Shown: piece after piece, positions 2,619 to 59,702 of the stretch
Layout of the letters: the number at the start of each line of letters is the position of its first letter
Position numbering within the stretch: the stretch's first letter is position 1
Source of the DNA: Microgenomates bacterium OLB22
GTDB taxonomy: Bacteria; Patescibacteriota; Microgenomatia; UBA1406; HO2-37-13b
Direction of reading: 5' to 3'
Assembly: GCA_001567515.1 (NCBI GenBank)
Contig: LLEV01000006.1
Span: 69,039-133,038 of the forward strand
Length of the DNA: 64,000 nt
The notes under the pieces: generated by a model
What the model was told of the DNA's origin: nothing
Seen by the model: the letters and a program-made list of their open reading frames with translations, nothing else
Database searches by the model: none
Position numbers and translations under genes: made by a program

Positions 2619-2918
2619 ATGGCAGCAATATGTCTCATCTGCGGTAAAGGTAGCATGTATGGGCGTTCACATACTCACCGTAAAGGTGTGGCTGGTGGAC
2701 GTTGGAAAAAACGTGCCCAAAAAACACCCCGTATATTTAAAGCAAATCTTCAAAATGCAGCCGTTGATCTCGGAGGATTTAGAACGCGAGTAAGACTTTG
2801 TACCAAATGTATCAAGCGTATTAAGAAGGATGTTGCAGATGGTAAAACTCCAAAACTCAACCTGGTCTCTCTTCAAGTAAAGCCAGCGGATGCTGTCCTG
2901 GTAGCTGCTACAGCCTAA
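2619..2918 (+). CDS. rpmB: 50S ribosomal protein L28 (with C-terminal extension)
   Basis: 'CLICGKGSMYGRSHTHRKGVAGGRWKKRAQKTPRIFKANLQ' matches the L28 core (Cys-x2-Cys, then basic residues and '..F.PNLQ'). Confidence 0.8.
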   Translation: MAAICLICGKGSMYGRSHTHRKGVAGGRWKKRAQKTPRIFKANLQNAAVDLGGFRTRVRLCTKCIKRIKKDVADGKTPKLNLVSLQVKPADAVLVAATA

Positions 2919-2964
2919 AGGCCTATTCGTATCCTGCCTTTACACTCGTTTTATCATCCATATT

Positions 2965-3088
2965 TCAGAACTGGAGCTCCGCAGTTACAGTTCGTAGAAC
3001 CTCACTCCAGTGGGCCCCCTGGCATATTGCATGCCACACCCCACTTGCGTTTGGTAACGAACTGTACACTACTTTCGCTAGGTTCTGA
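2965..3088 (+). repeat. Family-1 structured repeat, copy 1 (candidate ncRNA or MITE-like element)
   Basis: The element is closed by TCAGAAC...GTTCTGA. It contains a 9-bp long-range helix (2987-2995 with 3057-3065) and the hairpin TGGCAT-ATTGC-ATGCCA (3020-3036). Homologous copies lie at 7072-7221 and 10938-11088. Confidence 0.85.
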
Positions 3089-3103
3089 AAAATAGATGAC
3101 TGG

Positions 3104-3126
3104 GGACTAAAAAGTTAGTCCTTTTT
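3104..3126 (+). terminator. Rho-independent terminator after rpmB and repeat copy 1
   Basis: Stem GGACTAA/TTAGTCC with loop AAAG, followed by TTTTT (3122-3126). Confidence 0.6.
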
Positions 3127-3160
3127 GGTCACTTTTGACTTCTAACTTCTGACTGTTTAC

Positions 3161-3682
3161 CTATATTTTATATTCCTCCAATTCTCCATCTTTCTCTATA
3201 TACAATCTTCCATGTTGTTCCATGATTCGTTGGGTGAAGAGGATTCCATTGAGGTGATCTACTTCATGCTGGATGATGATAGCCTTAAATCCACTAAACC
3301 ATTCTTCACGCTGCATCCCATGCTCATCCTGCCACACTAAACGAACCTTTTCTGATCTACGAACAGGGCCCCACAGTCGAGGGATAGAGAGACAGCCTTC
3401 TAAACGAGTCTCTTTCGATTTGGAGACGTGGGATATTTCTGATTGTTCGACTATCTCGGGATTTATAAAGACCTCAATTGGGGCTTGCTTTGTTGGCATC
3501 ATGATAAAGATTCGTTTTGCTACTCCTACCTGGGTTGCTGCAAGGCCGACCCCCTCAGGATCTTTGTGAGCTACTAGAGCTTTTTTCATCTCTGAGATGA
3601 GTGTGTGGATCTTCTTATCTATCCTCCCGACGGTAGCGGCCGGTGTGGTGAGCACTTCATGTGGCGTATGTATGATATTCAC
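3161..3682 (-). CDS. def: Peptide deformylase
   Basis: All three PDF motifs are present: 'GVGLAATQVG', 'EGCLSIP' and 'HEVDHL'. Confidence 0.9.
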   Translation of the reverse strand: MNIIHTPHEVLTTPAATVGRIDKKIHTLISEMKKALVAHKDPEGVGLAATQVGVAKRIFIMMPTKQAPIEVFINPEIVEQSEISHVSKSKETRLEGCLSIPRLWGPVRRSEKVRLVWQDEHGMQREEWFSGFKAIIIQHEVDHLNGILFTQRIMEQHGRLYIEKDGELEEYKI

Positions 3683-3699
3683 GTTTGGTTCAAAATAAG

Positions 3700-6600
3700 T
3701 TAGTGACGCGAGCTGGTCGTATTTTTATGCTGATATTGTATCACAAAGATCATAAGAGCAACCCAAAAGGCATACCCAATGTACTGTAGGTATTGAGGCA
3801 TGAAGACTATCATGACGTTGGTGCTATCTAATTTTTCTGCAGTAGGGAGCTTCCATGCATTTGCCCATCCTTGTGCTTTGAAATGGGAGAGCTTTTCCCC
3901 CAGGAAGGGAAAAAGGAGGTGGTGAGCTTTCTTTTCAGTGAAGAGAAATGCTTGCCAACCCGGATCAAATGATTGTGGTAAGGTAATGTAAGAGTCATCG
4001 CCATAAATAAGCGGATAAGTCCGATACAGCCAACTATCTAGTCTCTCAGGCCTTTCAAGGGCGACGATCCCGCCTGATGTATGCTCTTTAGTGAGTTTTA
4101 ACCCTGTTATCAAACGATAGGGAAAAGGATGAAGTGAGAGACCCTTTACTAGAGCCCTACTCAACTCACCATTGAATGATTTTCCAACGATATGAAAGCC
4201 ATATCCTTCAAAAAAGTCCTGAGTAGGAGGTATGACGATGACGTGTGTCCCACTCTCATTGAGTCGCACATCTATTTCTGCTCTTTTTTCAAAGGGATTA
4301 TCTACATAGAAGGTGACAGGAAGCCCACCAGACTCTTTCTCCAGAGAAATAAGAGCTACATACGCCTGATTGTGGGCTAGAGGTTCGAGGTACCAAGCAG
4401 TATCGATCGATCCACAGCGGGCTTGGATCTGAAGCCCTTTCATTGTCTCAGTGGCTGATGCGGTCCGATCTCTGCATGGGCTAATCAAACTCGAAGTATC
4501 AGCATAGCTTTTTAGCCCAGGCTTACTAGTCAGTATGTCTGAGTCGTATGAAAGGGAAGCAGCAAGCGGGACAGTCACAGAAATTTCTTTTATCCCCTCT
4601 GCAATTGGTAATTCGGGAAGGGCGATTGATGGAGACAATGAGAACGCAGCTGAATCACTGACGGCCCCAGTCGAATCTACAACTTGTATAAGATGCTCCT
4701 TACTATCTAGTGCATAGATCTTATCTAGAAGAGCCGGTGTGCCATCAATAACTATGGAAGCATAATCTTCAACACTAGTTATCAGTGTAGAGGTCGTTGG
4801 GCTGTTCGATAGCGCCTTTTCATTGATTTGTATCTGGAGCGGTATTGTTTCCATCTGTAGCTCATCTCCGCTTCGAGCAAATCTGACATAGCTAGTGCGC
4901 TCTACCTCTGGTAACACAAAGGAGTATCCAGAGGACAAGGGAGGATTAAAAGTATGTGAAAATATGATGCCATCTTTGCTTATCTGAGAAGTCCATCCTT
5001 TTTTCTTTCTTTTTCGCTATATAGTCCGGGGAAAGGAATCACAGTGGAAGGATCATTGGTGGTGATGGAGTAAGAGATCTCAGGTGGGGCTTGATAATAG
5101 AGATCTTCACCAAGCCGGACTTGTATTGGCTTTTCAAATGCGTTAGGCCAATCAGAGGAAGGGACTTTCTGATATACCACCAGTGGAGTTGCCTCAAATG
5201 ACTTGATCAGTGATGGGATTTTTTCAAAAAATCGATAGAGTCGGTCGGTAGATATATTCTTTTCACTTAGTACGTTAATCGTGGACTCATCGATCAGTAA
5301 GTATGAGACATCATATCTAGTGAGTAGTGACTCAAACGCTGCAGCATCTTCACTCCGGATAGCATAGGCCGCCTCATTGTAAAATTGTTCGTTTTGACGA
5401 CTCCAGGGGTCAAATGCACGCAGTAGTATGGGCTGAGGTAGTCCATACCAGAGAAATCCAGAGCCTCGATAACCCCAATTACGGAACTCCCAGTTCCAGT
5501 AGGTATGGGCAGGCAGTGCCATGATCCGTTGATGAGGGGGCTGATCATTGAAAAAAACGCATTACATTGCGGTAGCCATCAGGTAGCTTCACACGTACAG
5601 CAGGTGAGACAAAATTGCCACTAAAAGCCGGGATAAAAAGTAGGATAGTGATAGCGATTACTACGGTGATGAACCACCGTGATACGAGGCCCATTTCTTT
5701 TAGTAGTACTTTTACCTGGGTCAAGCCATAAGCAAGAAAAAGTGTGTAGGCAAAAATAAAGGCAGTTATACACTTGGTGAAGGGTATGCGATAGGCTTCA
5801 GCAAAAAAGGGGAGGACCTGCCGAGAGAGGGAGAGGACCGGTTTCCCTAGGAAGGAGTTGTTAGCAAGCAATACGCCTGTGAGTAAAAAGCCAATGAGAA
5901 GGGCGACGCCAATAGGGCGTGTTGGTCTATGTCTGAGGCTGTAGAAAAGACCAAAAAAAACGAGAACGATGATCACAGCTATCAGGGTCTTTCCAAGTGT
6001 ACTATTTCTAGTTGTTCTCCATGCTTGCATAAGTGTGATGTTTTGTTGCAAGCGGGCATCATATTCGATGGTATCGAACATGTATCCCTCGAGCTTTAGG
6101 ACTGAGAGGGCTGATCCCCGAGCCATATTTCGGGCGTAGAGCTCGTCTGAGGAAAATTCGTTGATTCGGGCCTGCTGGATGACTGGTCCTTTAGTGGGGA
6201 CATTGAGAAAAAAGGGAAGAGCCCAGGCGCTGTGGACAGTGGTATAGATTGCGCAGAGTAAGAGAAGTCCATGATACTTTTTTTGCCCGATACTGATAGC
6301 TACCCAGAAGAGGCCCAAGATGATTGATTGGACAATAAATAGGGTTGGGACAAAGCCACTAGCAAGCGTCAGGAAGGAAGAGAGGGTGAAGAATACTAGA
6401 TTCTTTTTTGATTGCTCACGGATGAAGCGGAGTCCCGTATAGGCAAGAAGTGGCATAGCCACATGGTGATAAGTAAATACTTCTAGTGGTGCTATAAATT
6501 GCTGTATTGTCCCGATATTTGTCATATACCAGAGCCCTGCGATGATAGATATAGGTCTGGAAAGTTTTAGTGCAGCAGCTAGTCTATACATGAAGTAGCC

Positions 6601-6978
6601 ACCGAGTGTCCAGAGTGAAAAGGTGATTACATAGCGGACAAGCGAGTCGGGGAGGACTAACGTGAGTAGCCAAGTGATGAGGACGTGGCTTAGTGTAGCT
6701 CCGTGCGCGAGGCCATCATAGGTCCCTAGTCCTCGATAATCCTGCCATACAGAGGAAAAGGCTCTTTGTAGGTTGAGTAATGGATTGAACTCAGGAGCGA
6801 TAGTGTCCCATCCTAATAAATGAGTTCCAAAAGTGTAGTTGGTGAGGAAGGTGATGAGGCCGAGAGCAAGGAAGATGATAAAAGGGCGATCTGCAATAAA
6901 GCGCCCCATCCGACCTATCCATCTCATGGGTTTATTATAGTTGAAAGATGGGGAGTTGGTTAAATTGGTTTTTGTCAT
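3700..6978 (-). pseudogene. Large GT-C-type membrane glycosyltransferase-like protein (about 1090 aa) split into three ORFs by two homopolymer indels
   Basis: 5545..6978 encodes about 12 TM helices. 4980..5522 ('YDVSYLLIDE') and 3700..4938 (final TM helix) continue it. Removing one A from the A7 run at 5551-5557 joins pieces 1 and 2. Adding one T to the T6 run at 4999-5004 joins pieces 2 and 3. The family assignment (AftD/DUF3367-like or related) is tentative. Confidence 0.55.
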
Positions 6979-6997
6979 CCTGAACTCGATTCAGGAT
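6977..6997. repeat. Perfect 8-bp palindromic hairpin (ATCCTGAA-CTCGA-TTCAGGAT), half-copy of the 'TGTCATCC' repeat type
   Basis: The stem and its reverse complement read directly from the sequence. It abuts and overlaps the ATG (6976-6978, minus strand) of the GT-C gene. Confidence 0.8.
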
Positions 6998-7071
6998 CTA
7001 AGAAACAAAACCCTGACGTCTTATTCGTTTCATTTAAGTCCCTTTTTAAGTGAAGTAATTACATTTTTGTT

Positions 7072-7221
7072 CCCACCCTATTTGTCAGAACTGGAGCTTC
7101 GCGGTTACAGTTCGTAAAGCCTCACTGCGCCAGGGATCCCTGGCATATGGCATGCCACACCCTAGCTGCGTTTGGCAACGCACTGTATACTACTTTCGCT
7201 AGGTTCTGAAAATAGGGTGGG
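7072..7221 (+). repeat. Family-1 structured repeat, copy 2
   Basis: Extended terminal stem CCCACCCTATTTGTCAGAAC / GTTCTGAAAATAGGGTGGG, inner helix 7107-7115 with 7178-7186, and hairpin CCAGGG-AT-CCCTGG. Confidence 0.85.
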
Positions 7222-7249
7222 AGATGCTAAAACTTTTGACTTTCACCTT

Positions 7250-7867
7250 CTAACTTTTGAGTTCTATCGTTTCAAAGACGTGCCCCAATACGATTCCAGC
7301 TGCCACGATGACATTGAGCGAAGTATTCACCCCATGCATGGGGATGACTCCATGAGCATCGCAGAGAGATAGAGCTTCGTCACTGACCCCAAAAGTCTCA
7401 TTACCCACAATGAGCGCCAATGGTGTTTTATAGGTAATAGTACTGTAGGTAACAGCCTTTTTAGTCTGTTCTATTGCGATGATTTGGAGATCTCTGTGCA
7501 TATTTTTTAGATTGTTAATCGAATCAGATACCGTAGTGTAGTATTCCCAAGGTACGATCTTGTAGGTCCCTATAGATGCCTTTGCTATACGTGAGTTAGG
7601 AGGAATTTCCATATCACCACATAACAATAGTCCGCTTAGAGCAAACGCTTCGGCAAGTCGGAACAGCCCTCCTATGTTATAAGTGTCATATACATTTTCT
7701 GCGATCAGATAGATAGGAAACCTCTTCTTAGGCTTTATGGCAGTACCTGGGTCTAAGAGTCGCAGTTGCTGTGCTACCAATTTTTTCCTCCATGAAGCCT
7801 TTGCTGTATTAGCTAACCAAACGCCAGACAATGAGTGCCGATATCCAGCCAATAAAACTTCCGACAA
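7250..7867 (-). CDS. SpoU/TrmH-family RNA 2'-O-methyltransferase
   Basis: 'NIGGLFRLAEAF' and 'LIVGNETFGVS...IPMHGVNTSLNVIVAAGIVL' are SPOUT-family motifs. The 5' end overlaps the next gene by 59 nt, so the true start is uncertain. Confidence 0.75.
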   Translation of the reverse strand: MSEVLLAGYRHSLSGVWLANTAKASWRKKLVAQQLRLLDPGTAIKPKKRFPIYLIAENVYDTYNIGGLFRLAEAFALSGLLLCGDMEIPPNSRIAKASIGTYKIVPWEYYTTVSDSINNLKNMHRDLQIIAIEQTKKAVTYSTITYKTPLALIVGNETFGVSDEALSLCDAHGVIPMHGVNTSLNVIVAAGIVLGHVFETIELKS

Positions 7868-8474
7868 CTACGTCACTGACATAGTGAAATCCGAGGTAGA
7901 TGCGCGAAAACGCAATAAGACTAGCGATCACATAACTCAAAACCGCATGGCGAGGATCCTGCTTTGCTATAGCTGTTGCGGCTGCAAAGGCAAGCGTTGA
8001 GTGACCGGAGGGAAAAGCAAAGTCAGTAGGATAGCCACCACAGAAGTACTTGAGTATTGGATGGGTGGAAAGACTATTGAAAAAGGTTAGGACATCAGTA
8101 GTTGGTGACCCGAGGAGTGGTCGTGGACGTTGGAAGAAGAGTTTAAGTCCAAGATTAGTGATAATTGCCCCCAGGGTGATAGCCCCCAGAAATGGGATGG
8201 CAAACCCTGGATCATGGCGTACTTGTCTGTAGAAAATGACAAAAAACATCCCCATCCAGATGATCCCAAAGTTACCCGCAAAGGAGAAAAAGAGAAACAC
8301 AAGATCGGTGAACGTATTGTGCGGCAAGGTAAAAATGGCCTTTGTGAGGCCGTAATCAATCTTCTCGAGAGTGTCCATTATCATGCTTGATTGTAAGTAT
8401 ACAAGATTAGCGGTGATTTCAAAACTTATCTTAAGCTGCACTTTCATCAACTGGGTTTTGAGATAGCTTTTCAT
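7809..8474 (-). CDS. PAP2-family (undecaprenyl-diphosphatase-like) membrane phosphatase
   Basis: The acid-phosphatase motifs 'FPSGHSTLAFA' and 'SRIYLGFHYVSDVVVG' lie in a multi-TM protein. Confidence 0.8.
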   Translation of the reverse strand: MKSYLKTQLMKVQLKISFEITANLVYLQSSMIMDTLEKIDYGLTKAIFTLPHNTFTDLVFLFFSFAGNFGIIWMGMFFVIFYRQVRHDPGFAIPFLGAITLGAIITNLGLKLFFQRPRPLLGSPTTDVLTFFNSLSTHPILKYFCGGYPTDFAFPSGHSTLAFAAATAIAKQDPRHAVLSYVIASLIAFSRIYLGFHYVSDVVVGSFIGWISALIVWRLVS

Positions 8475-8489
8475 TTCTGCTATACTTGT

Positions 8490-9149
8490 TTGATGGAAAT
8501 TCGATACCTAGGACACTCAGCATTCCTACTCAAAGGCAAGACTGCTTCATTGATCACTGACCCTTTTGATCCAGATAAGGTGGGACTCCCCTGGCCCAAA
8601 AGTACTTCTGCCTCTATTGTCACTATCTCTCACCACCATACAGATCATAATAGGTCTGATTTGGTAGAGGGAAATCCGCTTGTAATAGATCTTCCTGGTG
8701 AATATGAAAAGAGCGGCATTCGAATAAATGGTATAGAGAGTTTTCATGATGCGGCTAACGGTGCTGAGCGGGGGACGAATACAATTTTTCATATTGAGTA
8801 TGAGGGGCTTACCATTGTGCATTGTGGAGATCTTGGGCACCAACTAGACGATGATACTCTGGAGCAGATAGGGACGGTAGATATTCTGTTGATCCCAGTT
8901 GGAGGTCACTATACCATCGGCCCAGAGGAAGCTGTAAAGGTAGCTCGAGCTATCGATCCTCGGATTATCATCCCTATGCATTACGGACACCCAGATTTGA
9001 AACTTTCAAAAGCAACTGAGCTCAGTAGTGTTCAAGATTTCATTTCGGCTACAGGGACACCTGTTGTAGAGAAGCTCACTAAGTTGGTTGTCAAAAGAGA
9101 AGACCTTGTTGAGGAGCAAGCCAAAGTAGTCATATTAGAGGCAAATTGA
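8490..9149 (+). CDS. MBL-fold metal-dependent hydrolase (UPF0173-like)
   Basis: 'YLGHSAFLL', 'ISHHHTDHN' and 'VHCGDLGH' are metallo-beta-lactamase fold motifs. Confidence 0.75.
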   Translation: MMEIRYLGHSAFLLKGKTASLITDPFDPDKVGLPWPKSTSASIVTISHHHTDHNRSDLVEGNPLVIDLPGEYEKSGIRINGIESFHDAANGAERGTNTIFHIEYEGLTIVHCGDLGHQLDDDTLEQIGTVDILLIPVGGHYTIGPEEAVKVARAIDPRIIIPMHYGHPDLKLSKATELSSVQDFISATGTPVVEKLTKLVVKREDLVEEQAKVVILEAN

Positions 9150-9388
9150 CCAAAATGATAGAGGGCCTATAGAAGGCCCATATATATCGAAATGAACATG
9201 TTTTGTTATCTCCCAGCGTGTACCTGCTATAAGATATAAAAGGGACAGTAAAAAAGCAAGAAAGGTCCATGAGCTTAGATCCTACCTTTAGCCCTACACA
9301 TTATATTATCTTGCCTCAATGTATGGTTTATAGCTTCTTCTTTTCCTTGCAATTTATCTTCCTTTCTGTAGTATTGTGCTACTAACCT

Positions 9389-10714
9389 ATGTCTGTCCAA
9401 AAGGTCCCACCACAAGATGAACTAGCTGAACGCTCTGTCCTGGGAGCTATCTTGATTGATCCCGCCTCGCTTTCCACAGTCTTAGAGATAGTACTCCCCG
9501 AAGCCTTTTACTTTGAGCGCAACCGGAGCATCTTTAGTGCGATGCTCGGGCTTTATGAGAAGCATCAGCCTGTTGACATAATTACGCTCACAGCTGAGCT
9601 AAAGCTTCTGGGACTCTTGGACAAGGTAGGGGATACGAGTTATCTCTCGGAGCTTATTGACACGGTGCCTACGTCTGCATATGTAGAGCATTATGCCAAG
9701 ATCGTGAAGGCACAGTATATCAAGAGAAGTCTTATCAATTCGGCCTCTCGGATAGTTGAGGAGTCATTTCAAGATGACGCAGACATCACTGAGCTCCTCA
9801 ACCATGCTGAGTCGACTATATTTGGGCTATCACAACAGTATGTACATCGAAATTTTATAGATCTTCGCAGTATCCTTTCAGATAGTTTTGCCCGTCTGGA
9901 AGATCTAGTAAAGCACGGCAGTGGACTTCGTGGAGTCCCTACAGGGTTTGCAGACCTTGATGCCAAACTTGCTGGCTTTCAACAGTCTAACCTCATCATC
10001 TTGGCAGCACGTCCAGGCGTGGGGAAGACTACTCTAGCACTTAATATGGCACTTCACGCAGCTCTAAAAGAAAAAAGTGCCCATTGGATTTTTTCACTCG
10101 AAATGAGCAAGGAGGAGCTAGTAGATAGGATACTTGTGGGGCAAGCTGATATTGATGCTTGGCGACTCAAGACAGGAAAACTCTCAGACGATGACTATGA
10201 GCGGATCACTGATGCTATGGGGGAGCTTACAGAAGCCCCAATATACATAGATGATACTCCAGGGGCACCTATGCTCGAGATGATGACAAAGGCTCGTAAG
10301 CTAAAGCTCGAGAAGGGCCTTGGGTTGGTGATCGTTGATTATCTTCAGCTAATTGCCCCCGGTAAAAAGTTTGAGAGCCGTGTGCAGGAGGTTTCATTTG
10401 TATCTCAACAACTAAAAAATATGGCTCGTGAGCTACGTATCCCCGTCATAGCTTTGTCTCAACTATCACGTGCTATCGAACATCGTGGGGAGAAGAGACC
10501 GCAACTTGCTGATCTGCGCGAGTCGGGCTCAATCGAGCAGGATGCAGACGTAGTGATCTTTATCTATAAAGAAAAAGAGGATGAAGATCTTGTAGTCGAT
10601 AGCTCAAAGGCTTCCGCAAAGCTCTATATTGCCAAACACAGAAATGGTGCAATAGGAGAGATTGATCTTATGTTCCGAGGTGATAGAGTGAAGTTCTATG
10701 GAGTGGAGAGATAA
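9389..10714 (+). CDS. dnaB: Replicative DNA helicase DnaB
   Basis: N-terminal 'ERSVLGAILID', Walker A 'ARPGVGKTT', 'FSLEMS', 'VIVDYLQL', 'SQLSRAIE' and 'DLRESGSIEQDAD'. Confidence 0.92.
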   Translation: MSVQKVPPQDELAERSVLGAILIDPASLSTVLEIVLPEAFYFERNRSIFSAMLGLYEKHQPVDIITLTAELKLLGLLDKVGDTSYLSELIDTVPTSAYVEHYAKIVKAQYIKRSLINSASRIVEESFQDDADITELLNHAESTIFGLSQQYVHRNFIDLRSILSDSFARLEDLVKHGSGLRGVPTGFADLDAKLAGFQQSNLIILAARPGVGKTTLALNMALHAALKEKSAHWIFSLEMSKEELVDRILVGQADIDAWRLKTGKLSDDDYERITDAMGELTEAPIYIDDTPGAPMLEMMTKARKLKLEKGLGLVIVDYLQLIAPGKKFESRVQEVSFVSQQLKNMARELRIPVIALSQLSRAIEHRGEKRPQLADLRESGSIEQDADVVIFIYKEKEDEDLVVDSSKASAKLYIAKHRNGAIGEIDLMFRGDRVKFYGVER

Positions 10715-10937
10715 AAATCGAGCTATTGCTAAAGGATCGTTGCAATCGATTTGATCAGTGCAATTCGGTAAAATGAAAGATGAATTAATGCAAGAAAAGT
10801 CTCTTGTCGTCCTTAACTTGCTGCGCCCTGCATAGCCCTATGGGCGACGTAGGAAATAGGCTCTAGAAGCAAAATCTAGGAGACCTTCTCTCATTCACCC
10901 TATTAGACTTACATATTCGTAGCATTACATTTTTGTT

Positions 10938-11088
10938 CCCACCTTATTTATCAGAACTGGAGCTTCGCAGTAACAGCTTGTAGTACCAGACTCGGGTGGG
11001 GCCTCTGGCATATTGCATGCTACGCCCCACTTGCGTTTGGCAACACGCTGTAAACTTCTTTCGCTAGGTTCTGAAAATAGGTTGGGGG
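10938..11088 (+). repeat. Family-1 structured repeat, copy 3
   Basis: Same architecture as copies 1 and 2. The inner helix 10973-10981 with 11043-11051 carries two compensatory base-pair changes relative to copy 1. The ATGCTA arm pairs through G-U. Confidence 0.85.
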
Positions 11089-11105
11089 ATGAGAGGGTTC
11101 AAGGC

Positions 11106-11133
11106 AAAAAAAGCCGGCAGACTATGCTGCCGG
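11106..11133 (-). terminator. Rho-independent terminator of the MIF-like gene
   Basis: Read on the minus strand: stem CCGGCAG/CTGCCGG followed by T7. The stop codon (11122-11124) lies in the loop. Confidence 0.6.
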
Positions 11134-11517
11134 AGGTAGGTCTGATGGTGCGCAGATCATCTTCCCACCGAACCAAAATGACGTGCCAGGTGGCATATCG
11201 AAAAATGTGATGTCGAGATTTGTTTGTAGTCCGTAATCACTCAGGAAGGTCTCGATCAGATTGCCTAGTGCTTTCTTCTGCTCGACAGATCTACCCGCAT
11301 TCCATAAGATAAACACATGGAGCCCATGGCTTTTATCTTTTGTTCCATCTTGTTTGAATACCATCCAGGTCCCCGGAATCAAGTGAAGCTCGACATCAGC
11401 GGCTTGAGTACCTGAAACTTCAGCCACCTCTTCATAGAATTTGGCTATCCAACCAGCATCTCGACCAAGATAGGTGCATTCTGACTCAGGAATATTTCCA
11501 ACAAATATGCAAGGCAT
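11122..11517 (-). CDS. Tautomerase-superfamily protein, MIF/D-dopachrome tautomerase-like
   Basis: From the internal Met the protein starts 'MPCIFVGNIP' (Pro-1 hallmark). 'LHLIPGTWMVFKQDG' and 'LDITFFDMPPGTSFWFGG' parallel the MIF blocks 'VHVVPDQLMAFGG' and 'VYINYYDMNAANVGWN'. The track ORF start at 11544 is probably too far upstream. Confidence 0.55.
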   Translation of the reverse strand: MPCIFVGNIPESECTYLGRDAGWIAKFYEEVAEVSGTQAADVELHLIPGTWMVFKQDGTKDKSHGLHVFILWNAGRSVEQKKALGNLIETFLSDYGLQTNLDITFFDMPPGTSFWFGGKMICAPSDLPPAA

Positions 11518-11734: not shown

Positions 11735-11830
11735 AATCTTTTTTTGTACACCTGGGAGGTGTGCTAAAGGGACACCTAGGGAGGGCATCCTCCTAGGTCG
11801 CGTCATGGTGGGACTCAGGGGTCATGCAAT

Positions 11831-11995
11831 GATCCCAGCTCACCCATGTTCAACTTCACTTCATGCATTACACGCAAGCAAGTGAACGTTTACACGTGCG
11901 GGTTACGTCTCAGTAATTACTCACTCGTGTCCGAATGCTGGCGGATATGAGATTCGTGAACTGTGACCTAAAAAAAAGCCCCGCCGTGGCGGGGC
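11831..11995 (+). repeat. Family-2 repeat, copy A (about 165 nt, candidate sRNA), ending in a terminator hairpin
   Basis: About 80% identical by eye to 47256-47420. Helices 11855-11861/11880-11886 and 11926-11932/11943-11949. The GC hairpin at 11978-11995 is preceded by A8, which is T8 on the minus strand and so terminates gene 12015..12524. Confidence 0.85.
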
Positions 11996-16864: not shown

Positions 16865-16948
16865 TGGCGCGGGTGGGAATCGAACCCACATGATGCAAGC
16901 ATCACAGGTTTTTGAGACCAGCCTGTCTACCAGTTCCAGCACCGCGCC
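16865..16948 (-). tRNA. tRNA-Leu (anticodon CAA), CCA not encoded
   Basis: Hand-folded cloverleaf: acceptor GGCGCGG/CCGCGCC, 3-bp D stem, anticodon loop CTCAAAA, long variable arm, T arm GTGGG-TTCGATT-CCCAC. Confidence 0.9.
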
Positions 16949-40761: not shown

Positions 40762-40845
40762 CGGAGGGTACAGGATTTGAACCTGTGTGGGATTGCTCCC
40801 ACGAGTTTTCGAAACTCGCGCATTTAACCGCTCTGCCAACCCTCC
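40762..40845 (-). tRNA. tRNA-Ser (anticodon CGA)
   Basis: Acceptor GGAGGGT/ACCCTCC, anticodon stem-loop CGAGT-TTCGAAA-ACTCG, long variable arm, T arm ACAGG-TTCAAAT-CCTGT. Confidence 0.9.
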
Positions 40846-40948: not shown

Positions 40949-41036
40949 GGAAGGGTCGCATAGTGGCCTAGTGCGCACGCTTGGAAAGCGTGTAAGGGTA
41001 AAACCTTCGGGGGTTCGAATCCCCCTCCTTCCGCCA
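40949..41036 (+). tRNA. tRNA-Ser (anticodon GGA), CCA encoded
   Basis: Acceptor GGAAGGG/TCCTTCC, anticodon stem-loop CACGC-TTGGAAA-GCGTG, long variable arm, T arm GGGGG-TTCGAAT-CCCCC, terminal GCCA. Confidence 0.9.
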
Positions 41037-47161: not shown

Positions 47162-47255
47162 TCGAAGTTCGAGGGATCATTGCTATCGACTTTTGATCAT
47201 TTTGATGTACATCGTCAATCTGGCATGATGAATTAAGGCAAGTCACTGCCCTCCT

Positions 47256-47420
47256 GATCCCGACCCGCCTATGTTCAACTTCACTTCATGCGTTACACGC
47301 AAGCAAGTGAACGTTTACAAGGACGGATTACGTCTCAGTAATTACTCACTCATGTCCGAAGGCTAGCAGACATGAGATACATAAACTGTGACGTAAAAAA
47401 ACCCCCGCTGGGGCGGGGGG
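47256..47420 (+). repeat. Family-2 repeat, copy B, ending in a terminator hairpin
   Basis: Homologous to 11831-11995. Helix 47351-47356 with 47369-47374. Hairpin CCCCCGC-TGGG-GCGGGGG is preceded by A7, which gives a minus-strand terminator for 47478..47822. Confidence 0.85.
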
Positions 47421-48040: not shown

Positions 48041-48986
48041 ATGGAACTCAAAGAAGCTATGCTCCGTTTCCTCGAATACTGTGAGCTTGATAAGAATCTA
48101 TCTCCGAAAACGGTGAAGATGTATGGCTACTACCTCAACTTTTTTTTTGACTGGGTCATAAAGCAACCTAGTTTTAAAGGAAAGGAAGTCCAGGTCACTC
48201 AGCTAGACGACGAGACGGTCCGCGAATTTCGACTCTACCTATCACGTAACTATATAAATCCGTACAAAGGTGAGCTAAAGCGCCAGACGCAAAACTATTT
48301 TCTTGTGGCGCTGCGATCATTTCTTCGTTTTCTAGTGAAAAAAAAGCATAAAGTCCTCTCTCCTGAGGAGATAGATCTGGGTAAGACCGAAGAGCGACAG
48401 ATAACATTCCTTAAGGAAGATGAAATACGTAAGCTTATTGATGGCCCTGATGACACAGAGATCATGGGGGCACGCGATAAGGCCATCTTAGAACTTCTTT
48501 TTTCGACAGGTCTGCGTGTGTCAGAACTAGTCTCCCTTAACAGAGATCAGGTAAATCTAAAGGATGGTGAGTTCTCAGTCCGTGGTAAAGGACGTAAACT
48601 TCGTGTGGTATTCCTCACTGAAAGTGCCAAACGCGCGGTATCCTACTATATAAGGATGCGTGAAGATGCATACAAACCGCTTTTTATACGCTACTCAGGG
48701 CCCAAACCAAAGCAAGAGACAGATGAGGCATATCGGCTCACCCCAAGGTCTGTCGAACGCATGATCGAAAAGTATCGTAAGGAAGTAGGTATTACTTTTG
48801 CCATAGGACCTCATGCATTGCGGCACAGTTTTGCTACAGACTTACTCAAACATGGCGCAGACCTACGTTCGGTACAGGAGATGCTGGGTCATAAAAAATC
48901 TGGCTACAACACAGATCTATACACATGTGACTGACCTTGGGCTCAAAGAGGTGCATAAGAGGTTTCATTCGGGAAACAAGGAATGA
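48041..48986 (+). pseudogene. Tyrosine recombinase XerC/XerD-like, frameshifted before the catalytic Tyr
   Basis: 'ARDKAILELLFSTGLRVSEL' and 'HALRHSFATDLL..GADLRSVQEMLGH' are recombinase boxes. After the A6 run at 48893-48898 the +1 frame reads '[13 protein letters not shown]...' with a stop at 48984-48986. The annotated frame ends at 48934 without that motif. Confidence 0.75.
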
Positions 48987-53112: not shown

Positions 53113-53206
53113 TGTCATCCCTGGTCCTATGAACGGAGTGAATAGTAACCCAGGGATCCAGTAAACAAAATTGAAGAGGAGATCTTGAATCAAGTTCAGG
53201 ATGACA
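53113..53206. repeat. 'TGTCATCC...GGATGACA' palindromic intergenic element (94 nt)
   Basis: Inverted termini, hairpin CCCTGG...CCAGGG, shared GATCCAG core, and a terminal imperfect hairpin. It generates the spurious peptide 'VILNLIQDL'. Confidence 0.8.
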
Positions 53207-53307
53207 ATGGGGTAAGTTTCAATGAGCATTTCTCAATGTTCAATGAATATTCAATAGTTTAATGATCATTGTAAATTGTCAACTTACCCTTAGCTCTTAT
53301 TTGCCTA

Positions 53308-53853
53308 TTATAGACGTTCCATTAGTCTTTGAACCATCTCATCATGTGGTTTGTGTCCATCTGCTGCAAGTGCTCCTTCTATGTCTGTAAGAAGATCTGC
53401 AACATGGCCAAATAAATCAGGAGAAAGCTGTCGACCATTCCAATCTGATGCACTGTGTGACCCTAACTAGAAGAGTCTTTTTTTGCTTTGTTTCTTATCT
53501 GCTGGATCGAGTCCTGTCCCTTTAATGTAATACACGCTACTATCGGAAAACTTGTGAGGCTTTCCCGAAATACTAAGGCTTATTGATTCACCTTCTGTAG
53601 GAAGTGTGACTATTGGAGTTTCTCTATAATACAGTGTTACTCGTCTACCACTTCCATAAACACCGGGGACAGAACCTTCCCACCCTTCTGTATTCTTTAG
53701 CTCTCCGTATGCTCGAAGTATACTTCCAGCCTGGTCAAACAGAACTTTTGATGCTTCTGCATATTCAGCTTCTTCACGTGCTTCGACTGCTTTTCTTTGT
53801 CGGTCAGCTTCATAGCTTGCTCTGATTTGTTCAAGTAATTCATTGTGTGACAT
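53308..53853 (-). pseudogene. Hypothetical protein interrupted by one in-frame TAG (53467-53469)
   Basis: The frame of 53467..53853 continues for 52 more sense codons after the TAG ('LGSHSASDWNGRQLSPDLFGHVADLLTDIEGALAADGHKPHDEMVQRLMERL') to a TAA at 53308-53310. Otherwise 160 nt would be unexplained. Confidence 0.45.
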
Positions 53854-59631: not shown

Positions 59632-59702
59632 GCGGGATTAATTTATCGGTAAAATGCCACCCTTCCAAGGTGGATAGACGGGTTCGATTCCCGTATCCCG
59701 CT
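59632..59702 (+). tRNA. tRNA-Gly (anticodon TCC)
   Basis: Acceptor GCGGGAT/ATCCCGC, anticodon stem-loop CCACC-CTTCCAA-GGTGG, T arm ACGGG-TTCGATT-CCCGT. Confidence 0.88.

Follow-up and report, generated by a model that had tools for sequence, protein, structure and literature searches.

Position, extent and sequence of the repeat

The analysed stretch of DNA, a 64-kb segment from an uncultured CPR bacterium (Roizmanbacteria) that is called the window below, holds a family of three intergenic repeats on the plus strand, situated in the rpmB/def spacer (copy 1), in the spacer between a gene for a 477-aa protein and a SpoU-family gene (copy 2) and in the spacer between dnaB and a gene for a 140-aa protein (copy 3). 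The intervals of ~4 kb between the copies are occupied by housekeeping genes of both strands, namely def, SpoU, PAP2 and dnaB, and a CRISPR or tandem array was rejected on account of this spacing. A preliminary description of this DNA had reported three same-strand intergenic copies, which were found where it had placed them, and a copy length of 125-150 nt, which proved too short, all copies having a 5' extension of ~14 nt; the repeat is ~165 bases long (160-165 bp), which lies inside the range of ~100-400 bp of bacterial MITEs. The coordinates of the copies, their parts and the neighbouring features are listed in Table 1.

Table 1. Coordinates of the three repeat copies, their parts and the surrounding features in the window.
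Feature	Position	Strand	Details
rpmB (ribosomal protein L28, 99 aa)	2619..2918	+	PF00830; upstream of copy 1
Copy 1	2940..3099	+	Most diverged of the three copies
Copy 1, 5' tail	2940-2953	+	TTACACTCGTTTTA
Copy 1, hairpin	2954-3099		Outer inverted repeat 2954-2971/3082-3099 (18 bp)
Copy 1, core	2965-3088		TCAGAAC...GTTCTGA
Intrinsic terminator of rpmB	3105..3130	+	Stem GGACTAA/TTAGTCC, then T-run
477-aa membrane protein	5545..6978	-	No Pfam match
Copy 2	7058..7221	+	5' tail 7058-7071 = ATTACATTTTTGTT
Copy 2, hairpin	7072-7221		Closing helix CCCACCCTATTT.TCAGAAC / GTTCTGAAAATAGGGTGGG
SpoU-family methyltransferase	7250..7867	-	
dnaB	9389..10714	+	
Copy 3	10924..11087	+	5' tail 10924-10937 = ATTACATTTTTGTT
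Copy 3, hairpin	10938-11087	+	
Terminator of convergent 140-aa gene	11114..11133	-	No plus-strand T-run
XerC/D-like tyrosine recombinase	48041-48934		

The three copies share 78-83% pairwise identity (17-22% divergence) and were recovered by nhmmer with E-values of 1e-56 to 1e-62 in the 64-kb window, where no fourth copy was detected by this search. An anchor 19-mer and an anchor 21-mer each occurred exactly three times against ~0.01 expected occurrences, and copy 1 was identical in the Logan contig L004, a contig of 1.1 kb from the same strain, as is L020. The 14-nt 5' tail is unpaired, starts with TTAC in all copies (TTACA, then a T-run) and contains, as read from the sequence, the -10-like hexamer TACAYT (3/3 copies). 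The element is palindromic throughout, and its terminal inverted repeats measure 18-20 bp. The previously described closing stem TCAGAAC...GTTCTGA was recovered together with its extension to ~20 bp in copies 2 and 3, and copy 1 proved to have an outer inverted repeat of 18 bp as well. No target-site duplication was found at any copy, whether the boundary was set at the foot of the hairpin or at the 5' tail, and TA flanks were absent at all three copies. The flanking DNA is unrelated among the copies and the genes in between are not duplicated. The clustering of all copies on one strand within 8 kb had a p-value of ~0.04; the co-orientation of three copies has a random chance of 1 in 4, and the stretch in which they are co-oriented has a uniformly positive GC skew. 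No conserved ORF was found, the frames differing between copies and being interrupted, and a protein-coding reading was rejected because reading frames are not kept among the copies. The template and variable repeats of a DGR were likewise rejected, since the copies are intergenic, they show no adenine specificity in their differences, and a reverse transcriptase is lacking nearby.

The plus-strand terminator that had been noted after rpmB and copy 1 was confirmed, which places copy 1 inside the rpmB 3' UTR and makes its transcription almost certain. Copy 2 is situated 94 nt upstream of the start codon of the 477-aa gene and 29 nt past the SpoU stop codon and is antisense to both genes. Copy 3 occupies the region 210-373 nt downstream of dnaB, and since the terminator beyond it lacks a plus-strand T-run, this copy has no plus-strand terminator. 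Neither a promoter nor a terminator common to the three copies was found, nor do they have a -35 element in common. The 30 ORFs scanned with Pfam in the window included no transposase, no TnpA, TnpB or RAYT genes were seen in the window, and the only recombinase in the Pfam scan was the XerC/D-like tyrosine recombinase 37 kb off. A longer element with the same ends, or any further match to the ends, was not found in the window.

Fold, strand symmetry and compensatory changes

Each copy forms one long imperfect hairpin of ~150 nt that follows the 14-nt tail. Compared with shuffled sequences the fold of each copy had a z-score of about -6 as RNA, and as single-stranded DNA the z-scores were -4 to -7 on both strands. 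The fold is a single rod that results from a near-perfect DNA palindrome, and either strand forms it with equal stability, be it RNA or single-stranded DNA. The minimum free energies of the plus and minus strands were -51.5 and -61.2 for copy 1, -67 and -73.3 for copy 2, and -68 and -58.7 for copy 3, and the corresponding numbers of G-U pairs were 1 and 3, 2 and 4, and 6 and 2. No consistent G-U strand bias was therefore seen, counts and energies pointing to the minus strand for the first two copies but to the plus strand for copy 3. An earlier argument that G-U pairing points to the plus strand holds for copy 3 and fails for copies 1 and 2, in which it is the minus strand that has more G-U pairs and the lower energy.

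The asymmetric internal loops UGG/A and UUCGC/CUUUC are invariant and so is the apical hairpin. The 5' arm contains only a 5-bp local palindrome (AACTG-N8-CAGTT), the 3' counterpart of which is weaker. The 60 end columns of the alignment are 85% invariant compared with 60% of the mid-stem columns (Fisher p=0.004). A separate CCAG...CTGG hairpin proposed in the preliminary description has its TGG in common with the apical stem TGGCAT/ATGCCA and falls outside the consensus fold. The hairpin was also considered as an intrinsic terminator, a reading that was rejected because no T-run follows it on either strand.

Five or six base pairs have compensatory double changes. They include U-A to C-G at alignment columns 41/112 and C-G to U-A at columns 43/110, two-sided changes at columns 49/106, 59/96 and 60/95, and a further double change in copy 1, located in its outer stem (TCATC/GATGA vs CCACC/GGTGG). 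The first two are the double substitutions previously assigned to a 9-bp internal helix; both are real, while one internal position of the helix is mismatched in copies 2 and 3, which leaves 8/9 pairs. The variable mid-stem pairs are largely compensated, and the proportion of paired cells is 93%, compared with 33-43% in controls with slid partners. The number of double-change pairs (6) was reached by 10 of 500 shuffles (3.1 +/- 1.2), a result obtained with only three related sequences, and related sequences can exceed shuffles even without any structure according to the documentation of the tool. The excess of covariation is modest for a set of three sequences. Compensatory changes are common in REPINs, in which the ends are conserved and the hairpin-forming spacer is less so (PMC3116915). 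Since hairpin-forming mobile DNA commonly has such changes, they do not separate an RNA reading from a mobile-DNA reading.

Database searches, related loci and alternative readings

A search of the whole window against Rfam 15 at the gathering threshold returned four tRNAs only, and at E<=10 nothing overlapped copy 1 or copy 3, copy 2 being covered at the gathering threshold only. The earlier remark that the repeat was not recognised as any standard RNA agrees with this result, and 6S RNA, SRP RNA, ribozymes and riboswitches were rejected for want of an Rfam signal (E<=10, copies 1 and 3). Exact-anchor scans gave chance matches only, both with the 19-mer in 185,579 GTDB species genomes and with the anchors in IMG/VR viral contigs, as did the two-anchor pattern and an 18-mer in JGI metagenomes; when the scan matches were checked with nhmmer the similarity was limited to the length of the anchor. 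No match to phages and plasmids was obtained by blastn, and six-frame translations of all copies matched nothing at E<=10 in a set of 5.8 billion proteins. Searches of the literature for the anchor sequences or for CPR MITEs found nothing relevant.

These results bear on the possibility that the repeat acts as a structured RNA, be it as a small-RNA gene family or as a cis-acting 3'- or 5'-UTR element, in which the rod hairpin and the conserved loops would serve in protein binding or in the control of mRNA decay and selection on the fold would explain the compensation. The six double-change pairs with their high proportion of pairing, the invariant asymmetric internal loops and apical hairpin, the almost certain transcription of copy 1 between rpmB and its terminator, the six plus-strand G-U pairs in copy 3 and the TACAYT hexamer in every tail are all consistent with such a role. 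The minus-strand fold is, however, as good or better in copies 1 and 2, the rod is simple and has no junctions or pseudoknots, three related sequences provide no statistical power, and the repeat neither matches Rfam nor is conserved in any related locus or, by exact anchors, in the species genomes. We consider this reading unlikely. What stands of the proposed novel structured RNA is a real family with a conserved hairpin kept by paired substitutions. The idea of a discrete plus-strand RNA gene was not supported, in view of a palindromic rod on both strands, the lack of a consistent G-U bias and of a common promoter or terminator, the antisense position of copy 2 and the absence from the sampled relatives and the scanned public collections, so that support for an RNA gene is weak.

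A covariance model (R1) detected nothing in ~250 kb of related Roizmanbacteria loci (~70 kb non-redundant). In the relatives the gene order SpoU-PAP2-MBL-DnaB is kept, their spacers are short or missing, and no element is present; none of the orthologous spacers in L005, L006, L017, L018 and L021-L030 contained the repeat, including the spacer downstream of dnaB in L005 that is orthologous to the site of copy 3. Within the collections and loci searched, the repeat is restricted to one lineage. The preliminary description had set presence/absence combined with target-site duplications as the mark of a MITE, and of these the absence in relatives was observed and the duplications were not seen. 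The closest relative is L005 (DnaB 95% aa identity), that of L006 and L017-L030 being ~70%. The dnaB genes of the window and L005 are 78% identical in nucleotide sequence and their four-fold degenerate sites differ by 69% (saturated), and L005 was therefore rejected as a close strain with an empty site; no clean empty site can be aligned at such a distance. It also follows that the copies are far more alike than neutral DNA of that age, which would fit spread within the lineage.

This likeness, much greater than that of neutral sites between the genome and its nearest relative, speaks against a passive relic. In that scenario a palindromic spacer would have reached three neighbouring spacers through an old local duplication, would have neither mobility nor function, and would owe its apparent compensation to quasi-palindrome-templated repair alone. 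The flanks are moreover unrelated, the intervening genes are not duplicated, and invariant ends and apex next to a variable mid-stem (p=0.004) indicate constraint and not neutral decay. The location of all copies on one strand within 8 kb, the low copy number, the lack of target-site duplications and the lack of a transposase in the window would agree with a relic, which we nevertheless regard as very unlikely.

The boxes of attC sites have the R''/R' consensus RYYYAAC/GTTRRRY. A site acting at the DNA level and co-oriented with replication, at which a cruciform or a folded single strand would be the substrate of a site-specific recombinase or of a protein that organises the chromosome (attC, Xer, Ter-like), is highly improbable: three co-oriented copies in uniformly positive GC skew, stable single-stranded hairpins, AAC...GTT ends like the innermost bases of these boxes and the tyrosine recombinase gene would suit it, but TCAGAAC/GTTCTGA fits the boxes at AAC/GTT only, the ~4-kb intervals hold housekeeping genes on both strands and not single-ORF cassettes, relatives show the same gene order without the element, the recombinase is 37 kb off and looks like an ordinary XerC/D, and the co-orientation has its 1 in 4 random chance. 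An integron attC site or cassette boundary in particular was rejected because of the misfit of the boxes, the housekeeping content and the lack of an adjacent integrase.

Proposed origin and comparison with known repeat systems

The repeat is real but fairly ordinary and has the look of a small palindromic repeat of the mobile type more than that of a new RNA gene. The reading we favour, with a probability of about 0.6, is that of a palindromic repeat of the MITE/REPIN/ERIC type which is specific to its lineage, non-autonomous and probably co-transcribed into neighbouring mRNAs. Repetition, a palindromic fold on both strands, conserved ends around a variable but compensated stem, intergenic siting, the lack of coding capacity, and restriction to one lineage with absence from orthologous spacers are the observations behind this reading, and from them we infer mobility, a mechanism that uses a single strand, and any effect on mRNA. 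An enzyme acting in trans, with its gene at another place in the genome, would recognise the invariant ends of ~30 nt (TCAGAACTGGAGCTYCGC... and ...CTTTCGCTAGGTTCTGA), most likely on a folded single strand, and the hairpin would be copied or moved into intergenic DNA. The complementarity of the arms would be maintained by selection on the intermediate for its ability to form a hairpin, or alternatively by template-directed correction inside the quasi-palindrome, and the outcome would be paired changes mid-stem and fixed ends. After insertion the copies would be passengers of neighbouring transcripts; in the rpmB 3' UTR the RNA duplex of copy 1 (~65 bp) could serve as a barrier to 3'-exonucleases or as an RNase III site.

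Against a mobile repeat stand the lack of target-site duplications, the lack of a transposase or of a longer element with the same ends in the window, and the small number of known copies, three in the 64-kb window, all on one strand and within 8 kb. Since the copies are 17-22% diverged, none would be a recent insertion. Two features, the invariance of the apical hairpin and the fixed state of the asymmetric internal loops, are also compatible with a functional RNA or with a site for protein binding. A more specific proposal, that the repeat is mobilised as a single strand in a REPIN-like or IS200/IS605-like manner (a tailed hairpin inserting 3' of TTAC on the lagging-strand template, with the hairpin selected in the intermediate and the repeat domesticated as an mRNA 3'-end structure), or else is a new CPR-specific rod-shaped regulatory RNA, is in our view quite unlikely.

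The genomes of CPR/Patescibacteria are small, gene-dense and thought to be repeat-poor. Hairpin-forming interspersed repeats in CPR would show that selfish or semi-domesticated elements persist in reduced genomes, and the family would be of use as a marker in strain typing and would be one cause of breaks in assemblies. If the repeat did act as RNA in the 3' UTRs of rpmB and dnaB, it would be among very few post-transcriptional elements known from CPR. A practical warning is that compensatory changes, when they occur in a palindrome that spans the whole element, are not in themselves a sign of an RNA gene, since mobile DNA that forms hairpins yields the same signal.

Among the known systems, the ends of IS200/IS605 elements and their miniature derivatives require no terminal inverted repeats and leave no target-site duplication. 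Their insertion is strand-specific and 3' of a short target, which is TTAC for IS608, and TTAC precedes 3/3 copies of the repeat; the orientation bias linked to replication that is expected in this family would agree with co-oriented copies in positive GC skew. The family has two separate small subterminal hairpins, however, whereas the repeat is one element-wide hairpin, TTAC may simply belong to the repeat, and no TnpA or TnpB was seen in the window.

REPINs are REP doublets that form hairpins and are mobilised by RAYT/Y1-HUH transposases (PMC3116915). The repeat is similar in being intergenic, non-coding, lineage-restricted and without target-site duplication, and in having two highly conserved inverted ends around a spacer of lower conservation in which compensation maintains a long hairpin. 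For REPINs an asymmetric intermediate that has a single-stranded 5' tail has been proposed, and the repeat has its unpaired tail of 14 nt. It differs in the length of the hairpin (~150 nt vs roughly 70-110 nt), in ends that are not short REP palindromes (20-40 nt) and have no GTAG/CGTC at the foot, a frequent tag of REP sequences described in PMC3733652, in the lack of a RAYT in the window, in copy number (three known copies vs tens to hundreds) and in an apex that is conserved, unlike a free spacer.

The Correia elements (NEMIS/CREE) of Neisseria and the Nezha elements of cyanobacteria are comparable in length (104-170 bp), terminal inverted repeats and a long stem-loop, and also in insertion beside genes, co-transcription and presence/absence between related genomes. 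Correia elements are distinct in their 26-bp terminal inverted repeats, TA duplication, IHF site, promoters and hundreds of near-identical copies, and the repeat departs from both in having no target-site duplication, three copies and 17-22% divergence. ERIC/IRU sequences of Enterobacteriaceae, which are imperfect palindromes of ~127 bp classed as MITEs (PMC3184786), have a similar size and are likewise imperfect palindromes over the whole element; they are sited in transcribed intergenic regions, so that a long hairpin is carried into mRNAs, and they occur at low to moderate copy number with appreciably diverged copies. The repeat has no sequence similarity to them and its host is a CPR bacterium, and of the terminal inverted repeats, duplications and TA flanks of the ERIC type none were seen in that form at the repeat. 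Bacterial MITEs measure 104-157 bp (Correia), about 127 bp (ERIC) and 130-170 bp (Nezha) (PMC3184786), and it is these elements that the repeat matches in size and fold.

Copies of the element and other repeats of the window

The alignment of 2940-3110, 7050-7240 and 10915-11105 (mean column identity 84%; pairwise identity among the copies 78-83%), the profile search of the 64-kb window (three copies recovered at E = 1e-56 to 1e-62, and no fourth) and the anchor counts (each terminal anchor found exactly 3 times, ~0.01 expected) agreed that the three same-strand intergenic copies noted in the preliminary description are real. Its boundaries were slightly short, as the pairwise local alignments showed extra sequence: copies 2 and 3 were similar over 169 nt, from ATTACATTTTTGTT through GGG(A/G)GATG, and copy 1 had the same 5' extension (TTACA and a T-run) as well as its own 18-bp outer inverted repeat. 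Each copy therefore consists of an unpaired ~14-nt 5' tail starting at TTAC, followed by one ~150-nt imperfect hairpin with zero junctions. The folding energy of the copies was -51 to -73 kcal/mol as RNA (z ~ -6) and -28 to -37 kcal/mol as ssDNA (z -4 to -7). No ORF was common to the three copies, the frames shifting from copy to copy. Orientation relative to the host genes was mixed, with copy 2 antisense to both neighbours.

Coordinates of the element and of other features in the window
Feature	Position	Strand	Remarks
Element, copy 1	2940-3099	+	Intergenic; rpmB (L28; PF00830) on one side, convergent deformylase-like gene on the other
Outer inverted repeat of copy 1	2954-2971/3082-3099		18 bp
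rpmB terminator	3105-3130		3' of copy 1
Element, copy 2	7058-7221	+	Intergenic; between SpoU methyltransferase stop codon and start codon of 477-aa membrane-protein gene, both genes minus strand
Element, copy 3	10924-11087	+	Intergenic; flanked by dnaB and convergent 140-aa gene
36-nt stretch	3131-3166, 7232-7267		ACTTTTGAC...CTAACTTYTGA; 75% identical
28-nt hairpin	6972-7009		CCTGAA-N5-TTCAGG; sequesters ATG of 477-aa gene
28-nt hairpin, inverted recurrence	53180-53207		93% complementary; again ends ATGACAA
28-nt hairpin, partial recurrence	53487-53512		
dnaB	9389-10714	+	
Terminator region AAAAAAGCCGGCAGACTATGCTGCCGGAGGTA	11108-11138		1427-1458 in L005
Second repeat family	11830-11981, 47255-47406	+, +	Two intergenic copies, 86% identical
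tRNA gene	16865-16948	-	
tRNA gene	40762-40845	-	
tRNA gene	40949-41033	+	
tRNA gene	59632-59702	+	
XerC/D-like tyrosine recombinase gene	48041-48934		

The 36-nt stretch follows copies 1 and 2 on their 3' side at comparable distances, and after copy 2 it contains the final three SpoU codons with their stop. It could be a 3' part of the element that is no longer present in copy 3, or else a chance likeness. Each copy of the second repeat family forms two hairpins (z -3 to -6), the second of which shows paired changes (CTCGTGTCCG/CGGATATGAG vs CTCATGTCCG/CAGACATGAG), and is followed by an A-run and a GC hairpin that read as a minus-strand terminator; the Rfam search of this family returned terminator-like noise only. 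The 28-nt hairpin and its recurrences may represent a hairpin common to translation starts or another small repeat, the third in the window. Three of the four tRNA genes are long (84-85 nt, class II-like), and the pair at 40.8-41.0 kb is divergent with ~100 nt between. The cumulative GC skew of the window rises to ~34 kb, is flat to ~58 kb and then falls, a course suggestive of a terminus-like switch within it.

Distribution among related genomes

Exact-anchor scans (one genome each of 185,579 species; JGI metagenomes, using two patterns; IMG/VR) returned anchor-length chance matches only, and the phage and plasmid collections gave no blastn match to the element. Two Logan contigs matched the window, both from SRR28716338, 1.1 kb each and identical to it, so that this dataset contains the same strain. 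Loci of relatives were obtained via homologues of DnaB, which assign the organism to Candidatus Roizmanbacteria (Microgenomates, CPR). The closest relative among the fetched loci (L005; DnaB 95% aa) was without the element, its post-dnaB spacer being 97 bp vs 407 bp in the window and alignable with the latter only at the terminator. In farther Roizmanbacteria (L006, L017-L019, L021-L030; DnaB ~70-73%) the SpoU-PAP2-(M24)-MBL-DnaB order was kept, and genes abutted or overlapped where the window has copies 2 and 3. A search of ~250 kb of related loci (~70 kb non-redundant) using R1, a covariance model of the element, gave no hit.

L005 was ruled out as a close strain by the 78% nucleotide identity of dnaB and the saturation of its four-fold degenerate sites (69% differ). 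That L005 lacks the element is thus a difference between species, one that offers no clean empty site. The similarity among the three copies is also far above that of equally old neutral DNA; either they spread in this lineage after the split or they have been held by constraint.

The DnaB proteins of the window and two uncultured relatives (L005, 19-1344; L016, 202-1527) shared 95% protein and only 78% nucleotide identity, with synonymous sites saturated under very strong purifying selection, and the protein identity therefore badly overstates the kinship of these CPR genomes. The terminator region AAAAAAGCCGGCAGACTATGCTGCCGGAGGTA was identical between the window and L005 despite the four-fold site difference in the adjacent dnaB; the remainder of the spacer was unalignable.

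Compensatory changes, strand and transcription signals

The consensus fold comprised 53 pairs, which were standard in 93% of cells; when the 3' partners were slid by 1-3 columns as a control, standard pairs fell to 33-43%. Pairing-preserving double changes, among them the compensatory changes initially described, occurred at columns 41/112, 43/110, 49/106, 59/96 and 60/95 of the three-copy alignment, with one in the outer stem, an additional T-A to C-G change being visible after proper alignment of the copy 1 outer stem. The excess of double-change pairs over shuffles (6 vs 3.1 +/- 1.2; matched by 10/500 shuffles) is suggestive and modest, and not statistically secure because only three related sequences underlie it. 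Of the 60 terminal columns, counted over both ends, 85% were invariant, as were 85% of those in the apical hairpin, compared with 60% in the mid-stem (Fisher p = 0.004).

Being a DNA palindrome, the element folds on either strand; the minimum energy was lower on the minus strand for copy 1 (-61.2 vs -51.5) and copy 2 (-73.3 vs -67.0) and on the plus strand for copy 3 (-68.0 vs -58.7). The G-U pairs on the plus and minus strands numbered 1/3, 2/4 and 6/2 in copies 1 to 3, so the single G-U that had been taken to favour the plus strand is counterbalanced by the other copies. Scanning for promoters and terminators revealed none common to the three copies. The terminator previously noted after copy 1 is present and is that of rpmB, hence copy 1 should belong to the rpmB 3' UTR; copy 3 is followed by a minus-strand terminator only and copy 2 by none. 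The earlier impression that the element belongs to no standard RNA family agreed with Rfam 15, which gave no match at gathering thresholds and no overlap at E <= 10, where copies 1 and 3 were scanned.

The proposed novel structured RNA is only partly supported: the conserved paired hairpin stands, and a strand-specific RNA gene finds no support. A functional RNA, either a cis-acting UTR hairpin or an sRNA, is an unlikely explanation, because the two strands behave alike, transcription signals are missing and related genomes do not conserve the element; the invariant internal loops and apex and the position of copy 1 ahead of the rpmB terminator speak in its favour. That the element is a relic of local duplication with no function is very improbable, as the flanks of the copies are unrelated and conservation is patterned. 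About as improbable is a DNA-level recombination or organisation site, since attC boxes misfit and the intervals between copies hold housekeeping genes.

A probable palindromic repeat of the mobile type

The element is most probably a new, lineage-specific palindromic MITE/REPIN-like intergenic repeat, of a known kind in an unusual host (CPR). Several features favour this class over an RNA gene: the whole element is a palindrome with invariant ends and a compensated variable stem, has neither coding capacity nor strand-specific signals, is oriented variously to host genes and is restricted to one lineage. The resemblance to a classical MITE is incomplete, no target-site duplication being found at the three copies. 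Among the 30 ORFs scanned in the window there was no transposase, nor was there a longer element sharing the ends, the sole recombinase being XerC/D-like.

A single-strand mechanism resembling that of IS200/IS605 or RAYT would fit the lack of duplications, the co-orientation under positive GC skew and the TTAC preceding every copy, as far as three copies allow us to infer; this TTAC could just belong to the repeat itself. Correia (104-157 bp), ERIC (~127 bp) and Nezha (130-170 bp) elements are listed as MITEs that form long stem-loops and are often transcribed along with adjacent genes (PMC3184786). The mobile-repeat reading would be compatible with an effect at the RNA level, ERIC and Correia elements being both. 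In REPINs the inverted ends are highly conserved, the "critical features" of the spacer are its length and hairpin-forming capacity, compensatory changes are "common" and the excised intermediate has a single-stranded 5' tail (PMC3116915); the element shows the same pattern of ends, hairpin and compensation, including the 5' tail.
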